NCBI GenBank assembly: GCA_046563655.1
Contig: CM102283.1
Location: 3,224,001-3,288,000, forward strand
Origin: Yuukianura sp. NJ FZ-2021
Taxonomy: Eukaryota
Direction of reading: 5' to 3'
DNA: 64,000 nucleotides
Position numbers and translations under genes: made by a program. Numbering within the stretch: the stretch's first letter is position 1; every line of letters starts with the position of its first letter. Shown here piece by piece: positions 402 through 59,263 of this stretch. The notes below the pieces were generated by a model. That model was not told where the DNA came from, ran no database searches, and saw only the letters and a list, made by a program, of their open reading frames with translations.

Positions 402-2890
402 ATGGACACGGTGTCCAATGGGTAAGGCTTTCGTTGATCTTATTGGTTTAAAAAACGTCAGTCATTCGTTTGTGGCAACTGCTCTGCACTTCTGTGGTTA
501 ATTCTGCGGAGATTAATTGGAAAACATCCTTCCAGAACCACAATTTCTTTAGATTAGTAACGTATAACTCATGTTACTCGATTAATCAAAAACCTTTCTA
601 TTAATAAAACCATAGAAAAAATCTTGGGTGTTAAAAACGATTTGACTATGGACGGTACATGCGTGTAGGATTACTTAAATTATAACTATTTAAGTACTAT
701 GTCTTTCAGAGAATTTTCCCCAGTTAATTGACACTTCTGATTTTTTTGTTTAAGGGGCTTGGCGGCCATTACGACGGAAGTAAAAGTAAAGACGACACCT
801 AATACTGCCAAGGCAAAGCCGAAACCGAATCCAGTGTCTACCGCCGGTGCTGCCGTTAAGAAACCGGCTCCAGAGGGCGCGATGCCTAGCCCCGTTGGGC
901 CCAAATCTAAGAGAAGTGCTAAAAGAGTTGCAAGAGTGTTTTTCCGGAAAGAAATAGACCAAGATGTAAGATCGTTTACGTTTTATAATTTGGGTCGAAG
1001 TAAGGATTAACGACCGTCATTCTACCCGCACAGTGTAGCCACTCTGACCATCTTGTGTGGCTGCAATATGCAGCTACACCTAGGGGTTACATTTGTAACC
1101 GCTCTAACTTAAAAGAAACCTAGCGTAACGTGGCAACAAAAGTAGCCGTATAGTGTAGCCATCCATTATAGCCACGAAGTGGCTGCAATGACTGTCGTTA
1201 ATCCTTACCCCAACCGTAAATTCGAATTCATTCCAATGCGTGGTTGTCAACTTCTCTATGTTAATTCCGTAGGTCCTGACTGATTATATGAAGAACTTGA
1301 ATTTGTCTGATGCTGGTCCTGGTGGGGATGATGGTCCCGGTAGTCCTGGTGCTGGGCCTGTCGGTTCATTTGATGACATGAACTTGAAGCCAGAACTGCT
1401 CCAAGGAATTAAAAGTAAAAAACTTACGGAACCAGCTGAGTGTCAAAAGAATGTCATCATGCCAATGATCCAGGGACGTGACGTAATCTGTCAAGCTCAA
1501 TCTGGGAAGGGGAAGACTGCTGCCTTTGTTATTTCGATTCTACAGCGCTTGGACCCGAAAGATCCAATGTGCAAGGCTTTGGTGCTAGCTCCGACACGAG
1601 AGTTAGCTGAGCAAGTAATTAATCAATTCTTGAAGAAATCTATGTCGTTTTACTGGTGAAATGAATATAAACTCAACTCTTTTTTTTTCAGATTCTAGCA
1701 GAGTTTGAGGTCATTGGCAAGTACATGAATGTCAAATGTCTTCCTTGCATTGGAGGGAGGAAATGGTCTTACAAGAAGAATCTTCGGCATGCTGCAACTG
1801 GTAATTTCCAGATTGCTGTTGGAACTATTGGACGAATTGCTCATCTGCTGGATCCTCGTCAAGGCGAGGACGACCACGGTATCCCAAGACCAGGGGGTAT
1901 GAATGGAGATTCGATTAAGATGTTCGTGATTGACGAAGCAGATAAGATGCTAATGGAACGCTCATTTCGGAACGACTTGAAATTCGTGAGTATTGAGTTT
2001 GAACAACTTATTAGCAAAAGGTTTCATATCTAAGTGAACTCGTTTTCCAGATTCTTAAAACTATCAGTGCCACTGCACAGTTGATCGTGACTTCTGCTAC
2101 TATGCCAAGCGTGGCTTTTGATCACTGCAACGATGTCATGCGTAAACCATTTAAGTTCCTACTTCGAAATGAGCAGTTGACTCTGGATGGAATTCAGCAA
2201 TTCTACATTAAAGTTGGGAATGAAGAGGGAAAGTTGGCCACACTCAATGAATTGTATCCATATCTCAAACATGTTCCCGGCATTGTCTTCTGTAACACTC
2301 GGGACAGAGCGGAGCGTGTGGCAAAGCAAATGAAGGCTCGAGAGCATAATATCGAAGGCATCGTAAGTTAAAACTCAATTACCGCCTTACTCTTTAGCAG
2401 TTTAGTATGTTTTTTTTAAACCTTGCATTTGAACATGTTTGTGAATATAATAGACGGGAACTATGGAACAAGAGATACGGAATAATACATTCAAGAATTT
2501 CAAGGAAGAACAAATTCCAGTTTTGATTGCGTCTGATCTATTGGGTCGTGGGATTGATGTTGACCATGTCAAATGTGTTGTCAACTTTGATTTGCCAGAT
2601 ATAACTAATCCTCAACGTGTGACAGCAAAGGAGGAGTATATGCACCGGTAAGCTTGTAAAATTACTGATAACTTTACATATTTGGTAATGTTCTAACTAA
2701 ACCTGAAATATTTAGAATCGGCAGAGCTGGACGTTACGGCAAGAAAGGAGTTGCACTCTCGTTTGTAACTGATAGGGAAGTAAACATTAAAAAAATCGAG
2801 ATCCTGGAGGAGTTCTATCAAACGCAAATTCCAGAACTTCGTGCCACCATTGGAGACTTGATGAATGGGCTCAAATCTACCCAGAAGTAG
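402..2890 (+). CDS. Divergent eIF4A-like DEAD-box RNA helicase, copy 1 (exons 402-421, 755-965, 1273-1614, 1692-1985, 2051-2362, 2454-2647, 2716-2890)
   Basis: Phase-consistent GT-AG exons give [44 protein letters not shown] and HRIGRAGRYG. The first two exons are less certain. Confidence 0.88.
1003..1206. mobile_element. MITE of about 200 bp in a helicase intron
   Basis: TIRs aggattaacgaccgtcatt / aatgactgtcgttaatcct, flanked by TA, with internal gtagccac/gtggct repeats. A related copy lies at 38357-39156. Confidence 0.7.
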
Positions 2891-3597
2891 TGTTGAAATG
2901 ATTCAGATTCAACTCCAGCTAATCTACCATGTTGCAGTTAATTACAATCGCAAACTTCGTCAGAAGTTATATCCAGGTTATGTGCCTCTTCTACGGTAAA
3001 TTGCCGTAGGAAATTATAACTGTGGTTATAATTATAGGAATTATAATTTATGATTAAAATTATGGGAATTATAATTATGAGCTTATGTTTCTACAAATTG
3101 TACTTTACAATTTACAAATTATCAACTTAATTAAGCAAGGGAGATTCAGAAGTGCCTTGTCGTTTCCTTCTCAGTCCCACCTTATTCTTGTCATTAATTA
3201 AATTAAAGAATGGCATGATTAATTTGTGTAATTGACTTTAAACTAATTACAATTGCCAATTCCTTGACCTAGGTCATTTCAACTTTAATTTGAGTAGTTG
3301 TGTTGCCCATATCTGCAGACGTAGGTGCACATTGTGTGTGTTGGAGCTTTTTGGCTAACCGATTTGCGCATGCGTGTAAGAAATGCAATCAGACGCTCAA
3401 AAGAGAACAAAAGAAAAAAGTGATGACGAGACGGGAGGGAGATGGATATTTGTTTCGATCTTTCATTCTTCCATCAGACATCTGACGGAGAGGACTGGTT
3501 TTGAATCGTCCAGAATTCGAATTTCTTCATCGATAAGCCACTGTCAATTACTAATTACTGATTAGTAGATTGTTTTCAGTTGAATTCACGACCTGAC

Positions 3598-53036: not shown

Positions 53037-53982
53037 ATGTCTGACGACTCGAGTGATGACGACTGCTACGGCCCAACATTACCTCCACATCTTCAAACCA
53101 AAAGGTCTGCTTTTCAGTAACTACTAACCATAAAGGTCATTTAACGTCATAGCTTTCGGTTTCCATAGACGTGTAAGATTAGTTATACCTTCACCTAACG
53201 TTAGGGATTGTTAACTCAACGATAACCATCGATTAATGGTAATTTGGCGCAGCGATTAACGTTTTGCTTCATGTTTCAGGCCCATTGGTCCACAACTCCC
53301 CGCATCTCTGTTAAAACAGAACGATTCTGAAACGAATGGATCCGTGATCTCTACAACATCAACTGATCCTTCAGAGGAACGTCTTTCGTCAACTACTCTG
53401 CTTAAGCGACCTGCAGAACCAGAACGAAATGACGACGATTCAGATTCTGATGGAGACATTGGTCCATACCCTCCAGATGACCCCAGGTCACTTCGCATAC
53501 CGCGTACTCAACTGCTGAAACCAGCTCAATCGTCAACGAAGTTAAAACGAGAAGAATGGATGTTAATTCCACCAAAGAATAAAACAATCTCCGAAGTAGT
53601 TGGTCAACAGGGGCTGACTGCCAGGAAGTTCCTGGGCCGAACTCCAGATGAAGTTGAAGCGGACCCTGCAGATGATCCAGTTGAAAAAGACTTTGTGGAA
53701 GAAGCTAAAGCAGAATTCGAAGCTAAACTGGCTCAAGAGCGGGATGAAAGGATGGATAAGATGCTGCAAGAAGCAAGTGCGGGGAAATCCAAAGAAAGTT
53801 TGTTACATTTACACCAGAAGAGGCGTAAAGTTGCTGACGAAGGGCCCAAGGAGAGGAGACCATTTGATCGTGACGTTGATCTCAAAGTAGGCGGGTTGAG
53901 TGAGGAAGACAAACAAAAGTTTATCAAGAAAACTTCGGAACTGACGAGCCGATTTCATGGAGGAAAGCAAAAATTTTTATAG
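53037..53982 (+). CDS. GPALPP1: GPALPP motifs-containing protein 1 (exons 53037-53104 and 53280-53982)
   Basis: YGPTLPP, IGPQLP, IGPYPP, KREEWMLIPP, ESLLHLH, RRPFDRDVDL, SRF..G..KFL. Confidence 0.85.
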
Positions 53983-54076
53983 TAATTTAACTTTTCTTAA
54001 GTTAGGTTCTTAAATTAAATTTTTTGATTAATCAAGTATCAAGTAAGAGTGCTAACTTTCTACGCATTTCTTGGTT

Positions 54077-55606
54077 TCATGGAATCTCGGCTACGGACGT
54101 ACTGAAATACGGCGACAGATGAGAACCACCCACTCTTGATTTCTGAATCAGCACAGCACTGCAAGTATTCAAGGGATTCAATTAATCAAATCAATCGACC
54201 GTAACAATTAAACAAGCCAAAACTAATTAGTTGTGGTGCTTACTCCATGATGACAAGAGCTGCCATGGCCTCCACAATCGGCACAGCCCTTGGCACAACA
54301 CACGGGTCATGACGACCTTTGGCCTCCAAAATTCCTGGAATACCGTCATAGCTGCTCGTCCCTTGCGGCAATCCTATTGTCGCAGGCGGTTTGAAGGCCA
54401 CGCGGAAGTAAATGTTCTCTCCATTGGAAATCCCACCCTGATTTCAAATCAAACTCAAAGTATTACATACTTGGCAGTATATTTTGGATGTGCTTGACTG
54501 CGGCTGGTTCATCTTACTTGAATCCCTCCAGAAAAGTTCGTGAGGGTCATGAGCCCTTGACTTCCTACACCGAAGGGGTCGTTATGTACTGACCCCTGCA
54601 TTTCACTTCCACTGAACCCACTGCCCAATTCGAAGCCCTTGGATGCTGGAATGGACAGCATCGCATGGGCCAACTTGGCCTCTAACTTGTCAAAACAGGG
54701 CTCCCCGAGTCCTCCAGGCACATTTCTAATAACGCAGGTCACTGTTCCACCAATCGAGTCCTTTGCGTCCTTCATCTCTAAAATTTTCTGGAATGAGGAC
54801 ACAACAGCCAGAAACTCCAATGAAAATTTAATTTTCAAAATTTTGGATTGATTTTACCTTCTTCATGTCCTCCGCGACAGCGGGAATGGGACACCGACAT
54901 TCGTCTGCGTCAACATCACTCCGACTAACTTTGGATAGGAAACTGAGGAAGTTAGTTGCGGACTGTTCGCATTCAAAGTCCATCTTCACTTGTCCTACTG
55001 ACGAAACGAATCCAACAATCTCCAAGTTGTAGTGCGTAGATAACCAAGTTTGGGCAATCGCTCCAGCCGCAACACGTCCAATCGTTTCACGAGCTGAACT
55101 CCTGCCTCCACCAGATTTAGATTTGACTCCATATTTGAGTAGGTACGTCAAATCTGCATGGGATGGTCGTGGGTAGACGTCAGTTTCGGAATAGTCGTGT
55201 TGACGTTGGTCCTGGTTCAACACCTAAACAATTTATGTAAGGTTATGCAGATTACCTATGTAAATGAGATAGTATAGGTGTGGAATTTACTTGCATTCCG
55301 ATTGGACTACCCAGTGTCACATCATTTTCGATGCCGGAGAGGATGACAACCGAGTCCTTCTCGTCTCTCTGAAAGGTCAGATACAGTTGACACGAAATTG
55401 ATCAATTGATGAAGTCAATTGGCAGGGATTGTTCTTACGGGAGTGGTGAGGTCACTTTGTCCAGGTCGTCGTCGATTGAGCTGCTCTTGGATCATTGGTT
55501 GGGTGACTCTGAGTCCCGGTGGACATCCGTCCACGATACATCCAACGGCCTTCCCATGAGACTCTCCGAAAGTGGTGACCCTAAACAGCGAACCAAAGGT
55601 GCTCAT
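54077..55606 (-). CDS. aroC: Chorismate synthase, 385 aa (exons 55606-55439, 55368-55291, 55223-54858, 54787-54518, 54437-54244, 54158-54077)
   Basis: [91 protein letters not shown]. All introns are GT-AG and the exons total 1158 nt in frame. Confidence 0.96.
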
Positions 55607-56618
55607 CTTCTGAATTCAAAATGACACTTAACTAATGAAATGCTTAAGAATAGCTTAATGACGTCTTCCACTTGAGTTAAATTGTTCATCTGCTGGTTGA
55701 TCTTGTGGCTTCTGCGGACACGGAGAGAGAGAAAAGGTGGTTGACTTCAATCGCTGTTTAATCCAAACTTCAAAGGTCACTAATCCCCGTCTGTCCAACA
55801 GATGCAAAATGCAGATGGAATTCTTAATTGTCTTCTAATTACGTCATCAAACAATTGAGTTTGTTATGTTTACGTTTTACTTACGTCGACGTTATGAATC
55901 AGGCTTGTCCTCAGGTAATGTACCAAGCAGTTTTCGACTTTACGACGTTTCCGATATGATTCTAAAATGGCGAGAGCTTGTCGCGCAGGCGTAGCTCTGT
56001 CCTCTGTCTGGTTCATTGTTTTTTCAATTCTGTTCTGCCTTTTGCAATACTTCGGGAAGCAAATGCCATTAAAAGAATTGCCTTATTCAACGTCACCTCA
56101 AACATCGACCAAGCTCGAAATTTTTAGACAAAATTTACAAAAGCAATAAAACGATTAACTTCAACTGTGTTTAAAAGAATTTAAAATGTAATTTAACACA
56201 GAAACGTTATATTTTTTTAGTTTAGTTGTTCACTCAGAACTGCAGAGTTTTTTTTCACGTTATGCACATAATGTAGTTTTGTAATTGGCAAATTGTATGA
56301 CGGTTCAATTGTTTTGCATTGCAAAACTCCCTTTGTTATAAAATTTTCGTCGTGTCGAAATATAAAAAATTTGTTTTTATAAAGTAAAAAATCTTTGCGG
56401 TGTATCAACGGTACTCAAAATCAACTGATTAAAAACCAAGACAGGAATCACAATTTTCGTTTTTCGTCGTTATCTATTGTCCGGTAATTGAATCATTCAG
56501 TTGACAAGCATACCACATCGTCAATTCATAGACAGAGAATAACAAGTCAAGTCATCCAGTCATCGTCATTTAGAAAAGTTATCATTCAGCATCAGCAGGT
56601 CATTTTCAGTATTTCGGT

Positions 56619-59263
56619 ATGTCGGACGTCGACTTCACGGATATTTCGATGGAGCAAAAGGGGAGCATGGTAAGAAACGAGTTAACAACAGCTGAGTTAC
56701 GCCTGAAAGGTGAAAAGTCAACTGATCATTTCATTTTCTTTCATTCTAGCTTCCCGGAAGGCTCAAGATTACAGACACTCAGATCCACTTCAAACCAAAG
56801 TCAGGGAAGAACATTTCGTCCATTTCCGACACGGACATTGAACTGGTCAATTGGATGAGACATGGTAGTCAGTATGCTGTTCGAATCTTCACAAACAATG
56901 GAACCCTCGTTAGATTCACCGGGTTCAAGGAAGCGGACAAAGACAAGTTGAGCAAGGCCCTGTCCAATCGCTTCAACAAAAACTTGGTTGACATGGAAGT
57001 TTGTCTGAAAGGGTGGAATTGGGGAACTGCCAAGTTCAAAGGGTCCGTCCTTAGCTTTGAAGTCGGCAATGCTCATGGATTTGATGTTCCACTGAGCTAT
57101 GTGTCACAGTGTACCACCGGCAAGAACGAGGTTACACTGGAATTTCACCAGGTACAAACCAATCAACCTCCGTTGGGTAATTTTATCCTACTAAAAAACG
57201 TTTTTTAGTAAACGAAAACATTTTTGTTGCAGAATGACGAAGCCAGGGACACAAGTTTGATGGAGCTGAGATTTCACATGCCGTCGAGTGAGAATGCGGG
57301 TGACACGGATCCAGTGGATGCCTTCAAGGATCAAGTTTTAAGCAAGGCCGATGTAATTGGTGCCGTTGGTGATGCCATTGCCATCTTCCGAGAGATTTAC
57401 TGTCTCACACCTCGGTTAGTACGATAATGATATCTCAGTTCAAGATAAAAGATAAAGGATGATCAGGATAAAAGATATGGGATCATCAGGATAGAAGATA
57501 ACTTTTTTTTGTTATACAGAGGTCGATACGACATCAAAGTGTACCAATCCTTCTTCCAGCTCCACGGTAAAACTTTTGACTACAAGATCTCCATGTCGAC
57601 TGCCCTTCGTCTCTTCTTGCTGCCACATATCGATGGTCGTCAGATGTACTTTGTCATCAGTTTGGATCCACCAATCAAACAAGGCCAGACGAGATACCAC
57701 TTCTTGGTTTTTCTCTTCTCGGCAGATGAGGAATGCTCGATCGAATTGCCCTACTCAGAGTAAGATGCGGTTCAGATAAACTGCAAGTTATCAATTAGTT
57801 GAAGATCAATTAATTTTAGATGTCCACATTTTATAGCAAAGAGTTGCAAGCCAAATTTGGCGGCAAGTTGGAGAAGGAGATGAGTGGACCAACTTACCAA
57901 GTTGTTAGCAAAATACTGAAAGTTTTCACGGATCGAAAGCTCACCGGTCCAGGGAAGTTCATCGGGTAAAATCTCTAAAACTTTTTTTTTTCATTTTTCA
58001 AATTTTTTTTTGAAATTCTAAATTTTTTCAAAATTTTAGGACAACAAAACAACCAGCAGTCGGTTGTTCGTACAAAGCAGCGGCCGGGTATTTGTATCCT
58101 CTGGAACGCGGTTTCATGTATGTTCACAAACCACCAATTCATATCCGCATGGAGGAAATCAGTGCTGTCAATTTCGTTCGAAGCGGCGGTGGGACCAAGT
58201 AATGTTCACCTTTCTCAACATTTCTTGTTCCAAATTTTTCAAAAACAAGTTTTAGGTTTTTAAATTTTCAAATTTTCAAATTTCATTCCTTGATTTGCAG
58301 GTCCTTTGACTTTGAGATCGAGCTGAAGTCTGGATTGGTCTACAGTTTCATGAGCATTTTGAAGGAAGAGTATTCCAAACTGCACGATTACATCAACAGC
58401 AAGGGCATTCGTGTCAAGAGCAACCCAGAAAAGATTGTAAGTGTCAGATTGACCTTTGACCTCTTTGACCTTTGACCTGACGTTGAATTTGCAACAGAAA
58501 TTCTTCAAGTGAATTCTTCAAGTTAAACAATTTTTCTTTTTATGAAATAGGACTACGATGGAAGAAGTTACGATGGCAAGGGAGAACCGGATGCTTACTT
58601 GGCTCGTGTCAAGGCTGAAGCTGAAGAGAGGAGTGAAGATGAGGGAGACAGCGAAAGTTCGGAAGACGAAGACTACAATCCAGATGCCGCCAAAGTGTCT
58701 GATGTCTCTGAAGAGTAAGTTTAAATCATTCCTGCGGCAAACTGACATCATGGCAGGATTTTCTGGGCTAAAACGTCTTGTGCTTGTCCAGGTCGGATGA
58801 TGGAGCTACTAGTTCTGCCAGTGGAGGTGGTTCTGGAAGTGACAGTGACAAGGGGAAGAGCAAGAAGAAGAAAGACAAACCGGTGAAGAAGAGCAAATCC
58901 AAGGGCAAAGAGAAGGACAAAGAGTCCAAGAAGGACAAGGACAAGCACAAAGAGAAATCGTCCAGAAGCAGTAAGGACAAACCTGATAAGAAGAAGAAGG
59001 AAACTACGGACAAGGTCAGAAAAGTTCTCTAAATGTTGAACATTTAGGAAATTGTTGAAGTTTGAATCCGCACTTGGGAGTTTTGGGCTTAAAACGTTTA
59101 TGTGATTGTTTAGAAACCGAAGGCGGGAACGAGCAGTTCAAAAGGAAGCAAATCCAAGAAAGAGTCGCCTATGAAGGGAGATGGATACAAGAGCAAGGAG
59201 TTCATTTCTTCGGAAGATGACAGCTCAGATGCTGCTGGAGGAGGAGGAAACGACAGTGACTGA
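56619..59263 (+). CDS. SSRP1: FACT complex subunit SSRP1 (about 10 exons)
   Basis: [75 protein letters not shown], and C-terminal YKSKEFISS. Confidence 0.95.

Follow-up and report, generated by a model that had tools for sequence, protein, structure and literature searches.

A fungal-type chorismate synthase gene between arthropod genes, most likely acquired by horizontal transfer

According to the textbooks, animals lack the shikimate pathway, so that aromatic amino acids are essential in their diet and glyphosate is considered harmless to them. How, then, does a gene for chorismate synthase (CS), the last enzyme of that pathway, come to lie between two animal genes? The question is raised by a stretch of 64,000 nucleotides from contig CM102283.1, hereafter the window, in which the original prediction had recognised an intact, intron-containing CS of fungal type. 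Our reading, which we hold to be probable, is that a fungal-type (Aro2-like) CS is encoded here in the nuclear genome of an arthropod, that its gene most likely arrived by horizontal transfer, as genomic DNA of a fungus or of a close relative of fungi, and that purifying selection has kept it since.

We rebuilt the gene model from the window by reading positions 53400-57000, translating the minus strand and joining the exons by their coordinates. The resulting gene runs from 55606 to 54077 on the minus strand and consists of six exons with GT-AG junctions, whose coding sequence (CDS) of 1158 nt gives a protein of 385 amino acids (aa) with zero internal stops. Coordinates, exon count, protein length and the distances to the neighbouring genes all proved correct on rebuilding. 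In the order of transcription, the parts of the gene are:

55439-55606, minus strand: CS exon 1, aa 1-56, with the ATG at 55606; holds the GESHG motif and matches PF01264 positions 1-47 (E 1.8e-17).
55291-55368, minus strand: CS exon 2, aa 57-82, placed by reading frame, GT..AG junctions and alignment to fungal CS.
54858-55223, minus strand: CS exon 3, aa 83-204, carrying the fungal-type insertion as well as the motifs PRPSHAD and GGGRSSARE; matches PF01264 positions 75-173 (E 5.7e-28).
54788-54857, minus strand: CS intron 3, 70 nt, phase 0, at a position common to fungal CS genes.
54518-54787, minus strand: CS exon 4, aa 205-294; matches PF01264 positions 176-258 (E 1.9e-30).
54244-54437, minus strand: CS exon 5, aa 295-359, ending in phase 2; holds the GRHDPC motif and matches PF01264 positions 259-323 (E 2.5e-21).
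54077-54158, minus strand: CS exon 6, the C-terminal 26 aa and the TGA stop, with the same junction and phase as in a second copy of the gene on contig L001 (described below).

Introns 1 to 5 measure 70, 67, 70, 80 and 85 nt, all of them GT..AG, and their GC content is 0.30-0.39 as against 0.51 in the CDS. In the Pfam scan, exons 1, 3, 4 and 5 matched PF01264 (length 327) collinearly, each above the 27-bit cut-off. Against the NCBIfam model TIGR00033 (aroC) the exons scored 107, 112, 71 and 70 bits, which amounts to about 360 bits against a cut-off of 212, this being a rough sum over separately scanned pieces. The uninterrupted frame and the full-length profile match bear out the claim of an intact 385-aa CS; an open frame that runs through six exons and matches the family completely is much more than chance could produce.

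The relatives of this protein were sought in two ways. Searching longer proteins with exon 3 gave 7861 matches at E <= 0.001 among the 8000 candidates scored, and in the best 120 of these all organism names are fungal except in one row, labelled Anthurium amnicola. That row (P0026), a plant by its label, falls within Glomeromycota beside Gigaspora and Acaulospora, and by this affinity it is probably a fungal sequence in a plant transcriptome. The spliced model is 62-70% identical to the 120 proteins over about aa 1-379, with Acaulospora (69.9%) and Calcarisporiella (69.8%) at the top; compared with named fungal enzymes it reaches 61-70% identity. When a profile built from 16 fungal enzymes was run against 1.84 billion representatives, it gave 16756 matches, and to the best 150 of these the window protein is at most 60.6% identical.

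For phylogenetic placement, 91 of the 150 representatives passed a filter on coverage and length; the top 50 went into a first quick tree and 13 into a careful tree. The careful tree, built by maximum likelihood (ML) under LG+C20+F+G4 from 49 rows and 398 columns, also includes 34 named fungi chosen from the 120 to span phyla. In it the window protein and the copy on L001 stand together (100/99), inside a clade of 37 rows (97/91) that contains all 34 named fungi and one further row, P0365; the inner order of this clade is not resolved. In a quick tree with 14 named bacteria added, all 14 fell outside the fungal-plus-window clade, which had a Shimodaira-Hasegawa-like approximate likelihood ratio test (SH-aLRT) value of 98. 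The CS of 80 bacterial loci shows a median identity of 52% to the window protein, the highest value being 62%. Ahead of the RCP motif, the window protein, L001 and three fungi have an insertion that is absent from the five named bacteria that were aligned. Both the claim that the enzyme is nearer to fungal Aro2 than to bacterial AroC and the use of the insertion before RCP as a fungal-type mark are therefore sustained, and from these comparisons the placement of the CS in the fungal (Aro2-type) clade, rather than with the named bacterial AroC proteins, is well supported.

The bacteria closest to the window protein are five metagenome-assembled genomes (MAGs) named as Desulfobacterota or 'delta proteobacterium' (L004-L008), whose CS enzymes are 58-62% identical to it, far closer than those of the sampled cyanobacteria or Bacteroidota. 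Two of these MAG enzymes, compared with fungi, gave median identities of 62-64%, and in the quick tree with bacteria the Desulfobacterota enzymes branch just outside the fungal-type clade, in a group of 46 rows (SH-aLRT 100).

Not every mark offered for a fungal affinity survived. The N-terminal motif MSTFG..FRVTT, which the original prediction had counted as fungal, is carried by the Desulfobacterota MAG enzymes too, and we rejected it as evidence of fungal origin because it is common to these delta-proteobacterial sequences. Since motifs and overall identity discriminate poorly, it is the tree, the insertion and the position of an intron that carry the argument for a fungal origin.

We surveyed intron positions by comparing exon 3 with proteins of similar length, where the matches are fragments called on unspliced contigs. 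Homology is lost exactly at aa 204, the site of intron 3, in 44 of the 240 listed proteins, compared with 2-6 at each of the neighbouring positions. Some of the fragments ending at aa 204 match Circinella at 95%, Jimgerdemannia at 83% or Phanerochaete at 88% identity, and when aligned side by side with their spliced relatives they part from them directly past the codon aligned to K204. From these alignments, the position of intron 3 reads as that of an intron also found in CS genes of Mucoromycota and Basidiomycota (Mucorales, Endogonales-like and Polyporales-like fragments). Such a shared position fits the transfer of intron-containing fungal genomic DNA and argues against a bacterial source; it indicates that what moved would have been genomic DNA of this kind rather than a processed copy. 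For intron 2, where 15 fragments start at aa 83-85, a shared fungal position is suggestive only. Nine fragments starting at aa 81 were discarded as marks of intron 2, as they could be internal-methionine starts in yeast-like sequences, and for this reason intron 3 is the only one that we firmly claim as shared. Among the fragments examined, no boundaries fell at the positions of introns 4 and 5.

The top fragment, P0245, was located on L001, a metagenome contig of 4920 nt. This contig carries CS exons 3-6, with intron positions and phases identical to those of the window and intron lengths of 69, 62 and 81 nt, and its protein is 77.7% identical to that of the window over 292 aa. In the comparison of L001 with the window, nothing beyond the CS region matches. 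L001 may come from an animal relative or from some member of the lineage that donated the gene. Beside its CS, at 2289-3419 on the minus strand of L001, stands an uninterrupted open reading frame (ORF) of 376 aa that lacks any Pfam domain and has no counterpart in the window.

The immediate surroundings of the CS are:

53037-53982, plus strand: GPALPP1-like gene, exons 53037-53104 and 53280-53982 with a 175-nt intron between them, splice sites read; Pfam DUF3752 (E 7.9e-13).
55607-56618, no strand: upstream region shared by the divergent CS and SSRP1 genes, identified by position only.
56619-57160, plus strand: start of the SSRP1 gene, with the ATG at 56619, a 79-nt intron after exon 1 and exon 2 from about 56750; Pfam POB3_N and SSrecog.

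The GPALPP1-like gene lies tail to tail with the CS, its stop ending at 53982 and the CS stop codon beginning at 54077, with 94 nt between. SSRP1 lies head to head with it, 1012 nt separating the two ATGs, and by its position this interval is presumably a promoter region. The observation that the CS introns are short like those of its neighbours holds good, given the 79 nt of the SSRP1 intron and the 175 nt of that in the GPALPP1-like gene. To identify the host we turned to SSRP1, with an exon of which 711 of 962 candidate proteins were matched at E <= 0.001; in the best 120 of the 711, all named organisms are arthropods (springtail, insects and branchiopods), at identities of 50-59%. In a tree of 26 SSRP1 rows the window branch is long (0.51), and only the midpoint root joins it to Orchesella, a springtail. 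The host is an arthropod, long-branched in this tree, which fixes no order for it. Rfam and ARAGORN scans of the window gave nothing diagnostic of host identity. Further ORFs of the window have the appearance of ordinary eukaryotic genes, a Pfam scan of seven ORFs having identified VOMI, LisH/CTLH and an F-box/LRR protein, and the GC content at third codon positions (GC3) is 0.51 in the CS CDS, with seven host exons ranging from 0.36 to 0.57.

Read data bear directly on the linkage. The runs listed as containing the stretch are five, all of DNA and from two studies, and contigs of four of them (X1-X4) were placed on 53200-57300. Runs X1-X3 may be the window's own source sample, which leaves X4, from the second study, as the only independent support. 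In X4, a contig of 434 nt at 53774-54207 joins the last exon of the GPALPP1-like gene to CS exon 6 and intron 5 with 0 differences, and a second contig at 55441-55823 comprises CS exon 1 and sequence upstream of it. A contig of X3 spans 53908-54763. In X1 the whole CS gene lies on one contig (54044-55614), another (55688-57154) reaches SSRP1 exon 2 and a third, of 133 nt, overlaps both; the depth in this run is 240.8 over the CS compared with 284.1 and 234.1 over the flanks. The original prediction had held the gene to be linked to animal genes, and contamination to be unlikely, and this is upheld by contigs that bridge the junctions in runs of two studies and by an X1 depth equal to that of the flanks. 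That the CS is truly integrated beside arthropod genes is well supported.

The same contigs also reveal variation at the locus. At 54044-54046, contigs of X1 and X2 arriving from both sides run into loose letters that are mutually reverse-complementary, which suggests that the spacer of 94 nt between the CS and the GPALPP1-like gene holds a polymorphic insertion whose ends are inverted. Runs X1-X3 further contain second contigs of lower depth at 53348-53399, 54831-55023 and 55615-55770, which differ at clustered sites, an insertion of 7 nt and a skip of 36 nt in intron 3 among them; these contigs suggest divergent haplotypes or pooled individuals.

Has the gene been maintained by selection? 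Of the 53 columns with at least 95% conservation across 84 rows, fungal and representative, the window protein keeps every one, those of GRHDPC included, along with 132 of the 136 columns that are invariant in the 34 named fungi. The four departures from fungal invariance are G to D at aa 72, P to Q at aa 90, E to Q at aa 140 and T to S at aa 253. The conserved CS motifs presumably serve the binding of flavin mononucleotide (FMN) or of 5-enolpyruvylshikimate-3-phosphate (EPSP). Of the 12 variants listed inside the CS gene, with 21 further variants beyond the listing, 1 is intronic, 9 are synonymous and 2 non-synonymous. Between L001 and the window, over 301 codons, the proportion of non-synonymous differences (pN) is 0.165 and that of synonymous differences (pS) 0.753; pS is saturated, so that the ratio of the two substitution rates (dN/dS) lies well below one. 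The word 'domesticated', used of this gene from the start, fits a sequence in which the conserved columns are all kept, the 11 listed coding variants include 9 synonymous ones and pN against L001 is this far below pS.

In the CS reaction EPSP loses its phosphate with the help of reduced FMN, a flavin that fungal enzymes reduce themselves with NADPH. The enzyme of the window is likewise predicted to convert EPSP to chorismate with reduced FMN, and by analogy with fungal Aro2 it would probably reduce its own flavin with NAD(P)H. It is expected to be cytosolic, as its N-terminus aligns with fungal N-termini and bears no extension. Selection across the full set of conserved columns suggests that the CS reaction itself is in use, and hence that EPSP is required. 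As EPSP is a charged intermediate and the catalytic columns are preserved, it would probably be made in or beside the same cells, where it could be supplied by other acquired genes, located elsewhere in the genome, or by a microbial partner without the last step. The fungal route to chorismate needs only 3-deoxy-D-arabino-heptulosonate 7-phosphate (DAHP) synthase, the pentafunctional AROM protein and CS. No other shikimate gene was noticed among the ORFs of at least 130 aa in the 64 kb of the window, only seven ORFs having been put through Pfam. That the host has a complete, fungus-derived and host-encoded route to chorismate is a prospect worth entertaining, if a rather doubtful one.

Another way to view the conservation of the protein is that the CS has been kept for some other activity, such as NAD(P)H-dependent flavin reduction, in an animal without EPSP that forms no chorismate. 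In some sources fungal homologues go by the name 'bifunctional chorismate synthase/riboflavin reductase [NAD(P)H] aro2', which speaks for this explanation, and it also counts in its favour that animals are not known to produce EPSP. However, the protein has kept all 53 family-wide columns and not a subset of them, as selection on the full CS reaction predicts, and we consider retention for a different activity to be distinctly improbable.

Returning to a fungal gene that was transferred into an arthropod and retained there for its CS activity, several observations weigh against it. Holding the 35 fungal rows of the careful tree together without the window clade costs only 3.07 units of log-likelihood, and in the approximately unbiased (AU) test this arrangement has p = 0.361; a placement as sister to all sampled fungi is thus not rejected. 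The donor may have been a eukaryote other than a fungus. The nearest outgroups are P0366, P0368 and P0372, and a protein-cluster lookup of P0368 and P0366 led to generic, mainly bacterial CS clusters that indicated no taxon. The median identity between the window protein and fungi, at 66%, is also not far from the 61.5-63% found for the Desulfobacterota MAGs. In X4, a contig of 1111 nt over 54178-55258 has a depth of 87.8, about 20-fold that of the contigs flanking it (around 3-7). Finally, the long-term selection measured against L001 may have acted elsewhere than in animals. As to the deep contig of X4, it comprises exons 3-5 with introns 3 and 4 retained, and its first 30 letters do not fit the window; it could be a recently amplified fragment, an enrichment or an amplicon. 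Of the fungus-to-arthropod transfer originally proposed, then, the fungal clade, the insertion, the shared intron and the arthropod linkage are in its favour, while the AU test allows the gene to be sister to the fungi as well as nested within them.

The AU result also bears on vertical retention, in which an ancestral opisthokont CS survived in this arthropod lineage but disappeared from every other animal sampled. A window clade outside all sampled fungi is what this explanation calls for and what the test allows (p = 0.361), and an intron position in common with fungi fits common descent as well. The choanozoan ancestor, moreover, had genes for nine essential amino acids, according to passages of PMC6040629. 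However, the same passages place the loss of those pathways on the animal stem lineage (PMC6040629), and retention would then demand a great number of independent losses. No row is named as an animal among the 240 CS matches listed (the best 120 of each search, with many rows lacking a name). Furthermore, fungal groups among themselves have a median identity of 69%, which the median of 66% between the window and fungi approaches, whereas a deeper split predicts a clearly greater distance. We regard vertical retention as very improbable.

The possibility of an assembly artefact or of contamination, that is, of a fungal contig wrongly joined to arthropod sequence, has to be weighed for any gene of fungal type, the more so as fungal DNA is a frequent contaminant of arthropod samples, and the X4 contig whose depth over exons 3-5 is some 20 times that of its flanks adds to it. 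Yet both junctions are crossed at 0 differences by contigs from runs of two studies, the X1 depth on the CS equals that of the flanks, both neighbouring genes lie within about 1 kb of the CS, the GC3 is host-like and among the listed fungal proteins none is more than 70% identical; we judge this explanation extremely unlikely. To a decaying, unexpressed relic of a recent transfer we give next to no credence, with the frame intact over six exons, the conserved columns all kept, the listed variants mostly synonymous, and an L001 copy that, at saturated synonymous sites, still has the same structure and a low pN.

Elsewhere in the window, 31721-32950 and 34806-36037 on the minus strand resemble two tandem copies of a gene, in which a VOMI exon (Pfam E 1.5e-32 in the first copy) goes together with a second conserved exon that has no Pfam match in the scanned copy. 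At 30004-30073 on the plus strand there is a weak Rfam match to a tRNA (33 bits, gathering score 29) that ARAGORN did not call.

If the transfer is as we read it, the CS is another microbial metabolic gene acquired by arthropods, which is a known phenomenon, but in an unexpected pathway. The retention in an animal genome of an enzyme family that makes chorismate raises the question of where the substrate comes from, whether from acquired genes or from a microbial partner. Should the pathway prove complete, the animal would make its own chorismate and perhaps its own aromatic amino acids, for example tyrosine for the cuticle, and would possess a direct target of glyphosate; the original prediction had raised both the making of chorismate and glyphosate sensitivity, and both are speculative. 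In the literature we found no report of a chorismate synthase in, or transferred into, arthropods. The main text of a compendium of metazoan horizontal gene transfer contains neither 'chorismate' nor 'shikimate', its gene tables being placed in supplements.

Among known systems, the window enzyme is most like fungal Aro2, with which it has in common a full-length collinear match, membership of the same supported clade, the insertion, the intron position and the lack of a transit peptide. The best PDB matches to its exon 3 are 7rca_A (E 1e-38) and 1r52_A (E 1.3e-33), and we take PDB 7rca and 1r52/1r53 to be the solved structures related to fungal Aro2. It differs from fungal Aro2 in being encoded between arthropod genes and in having changed at four fungal-invariant columns. 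With bacterial AroC (TIGR00033, PRK05382) it has the family and its conserved motifs in common; it differs from it in the insertion missing from the five named bacteria aligned, in the 14 named bacteria that fall outside the clade and in an identity whose median is 52% and maximum 62%. Unlike the CS of the window, bacterial genes are also not known to have introns.

Among genes of chorismate metabolism reported from animals, chorismate mutase is, in the account given in PMC4943190, a clear case of horizontal acquisition in hemipterans and in plant-parasitic nematodes; the nematode enzyme is proposed there to modulate the shikimate pathway of the plant, and the role of the hemipteran one is left open (PMC4943190). 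The likeness is that of an enzyme of chorismate metabolism, normally lacking in animals, that entered an animal genome by horizontal transfer. The difference is that chorismate mutase consumes chorismate, whereas the enzyme of the window is of fungal type and is predicted to make it. A comparison at the level of the pathway is offered by the sea anemone Nematostella vectensis, in that shikimate-pathway genes have been claimed for an animal genome there too (Starcevic et al. 2008). According to PMC4237138, the origin of those genes has been traced to a Tenacibaculum-like bacterium, a taxon of which the animal harbours a symbiont. The CS of the window differs from these in having spliceosomal introns, in lying between animal genes and in being fungal in type.

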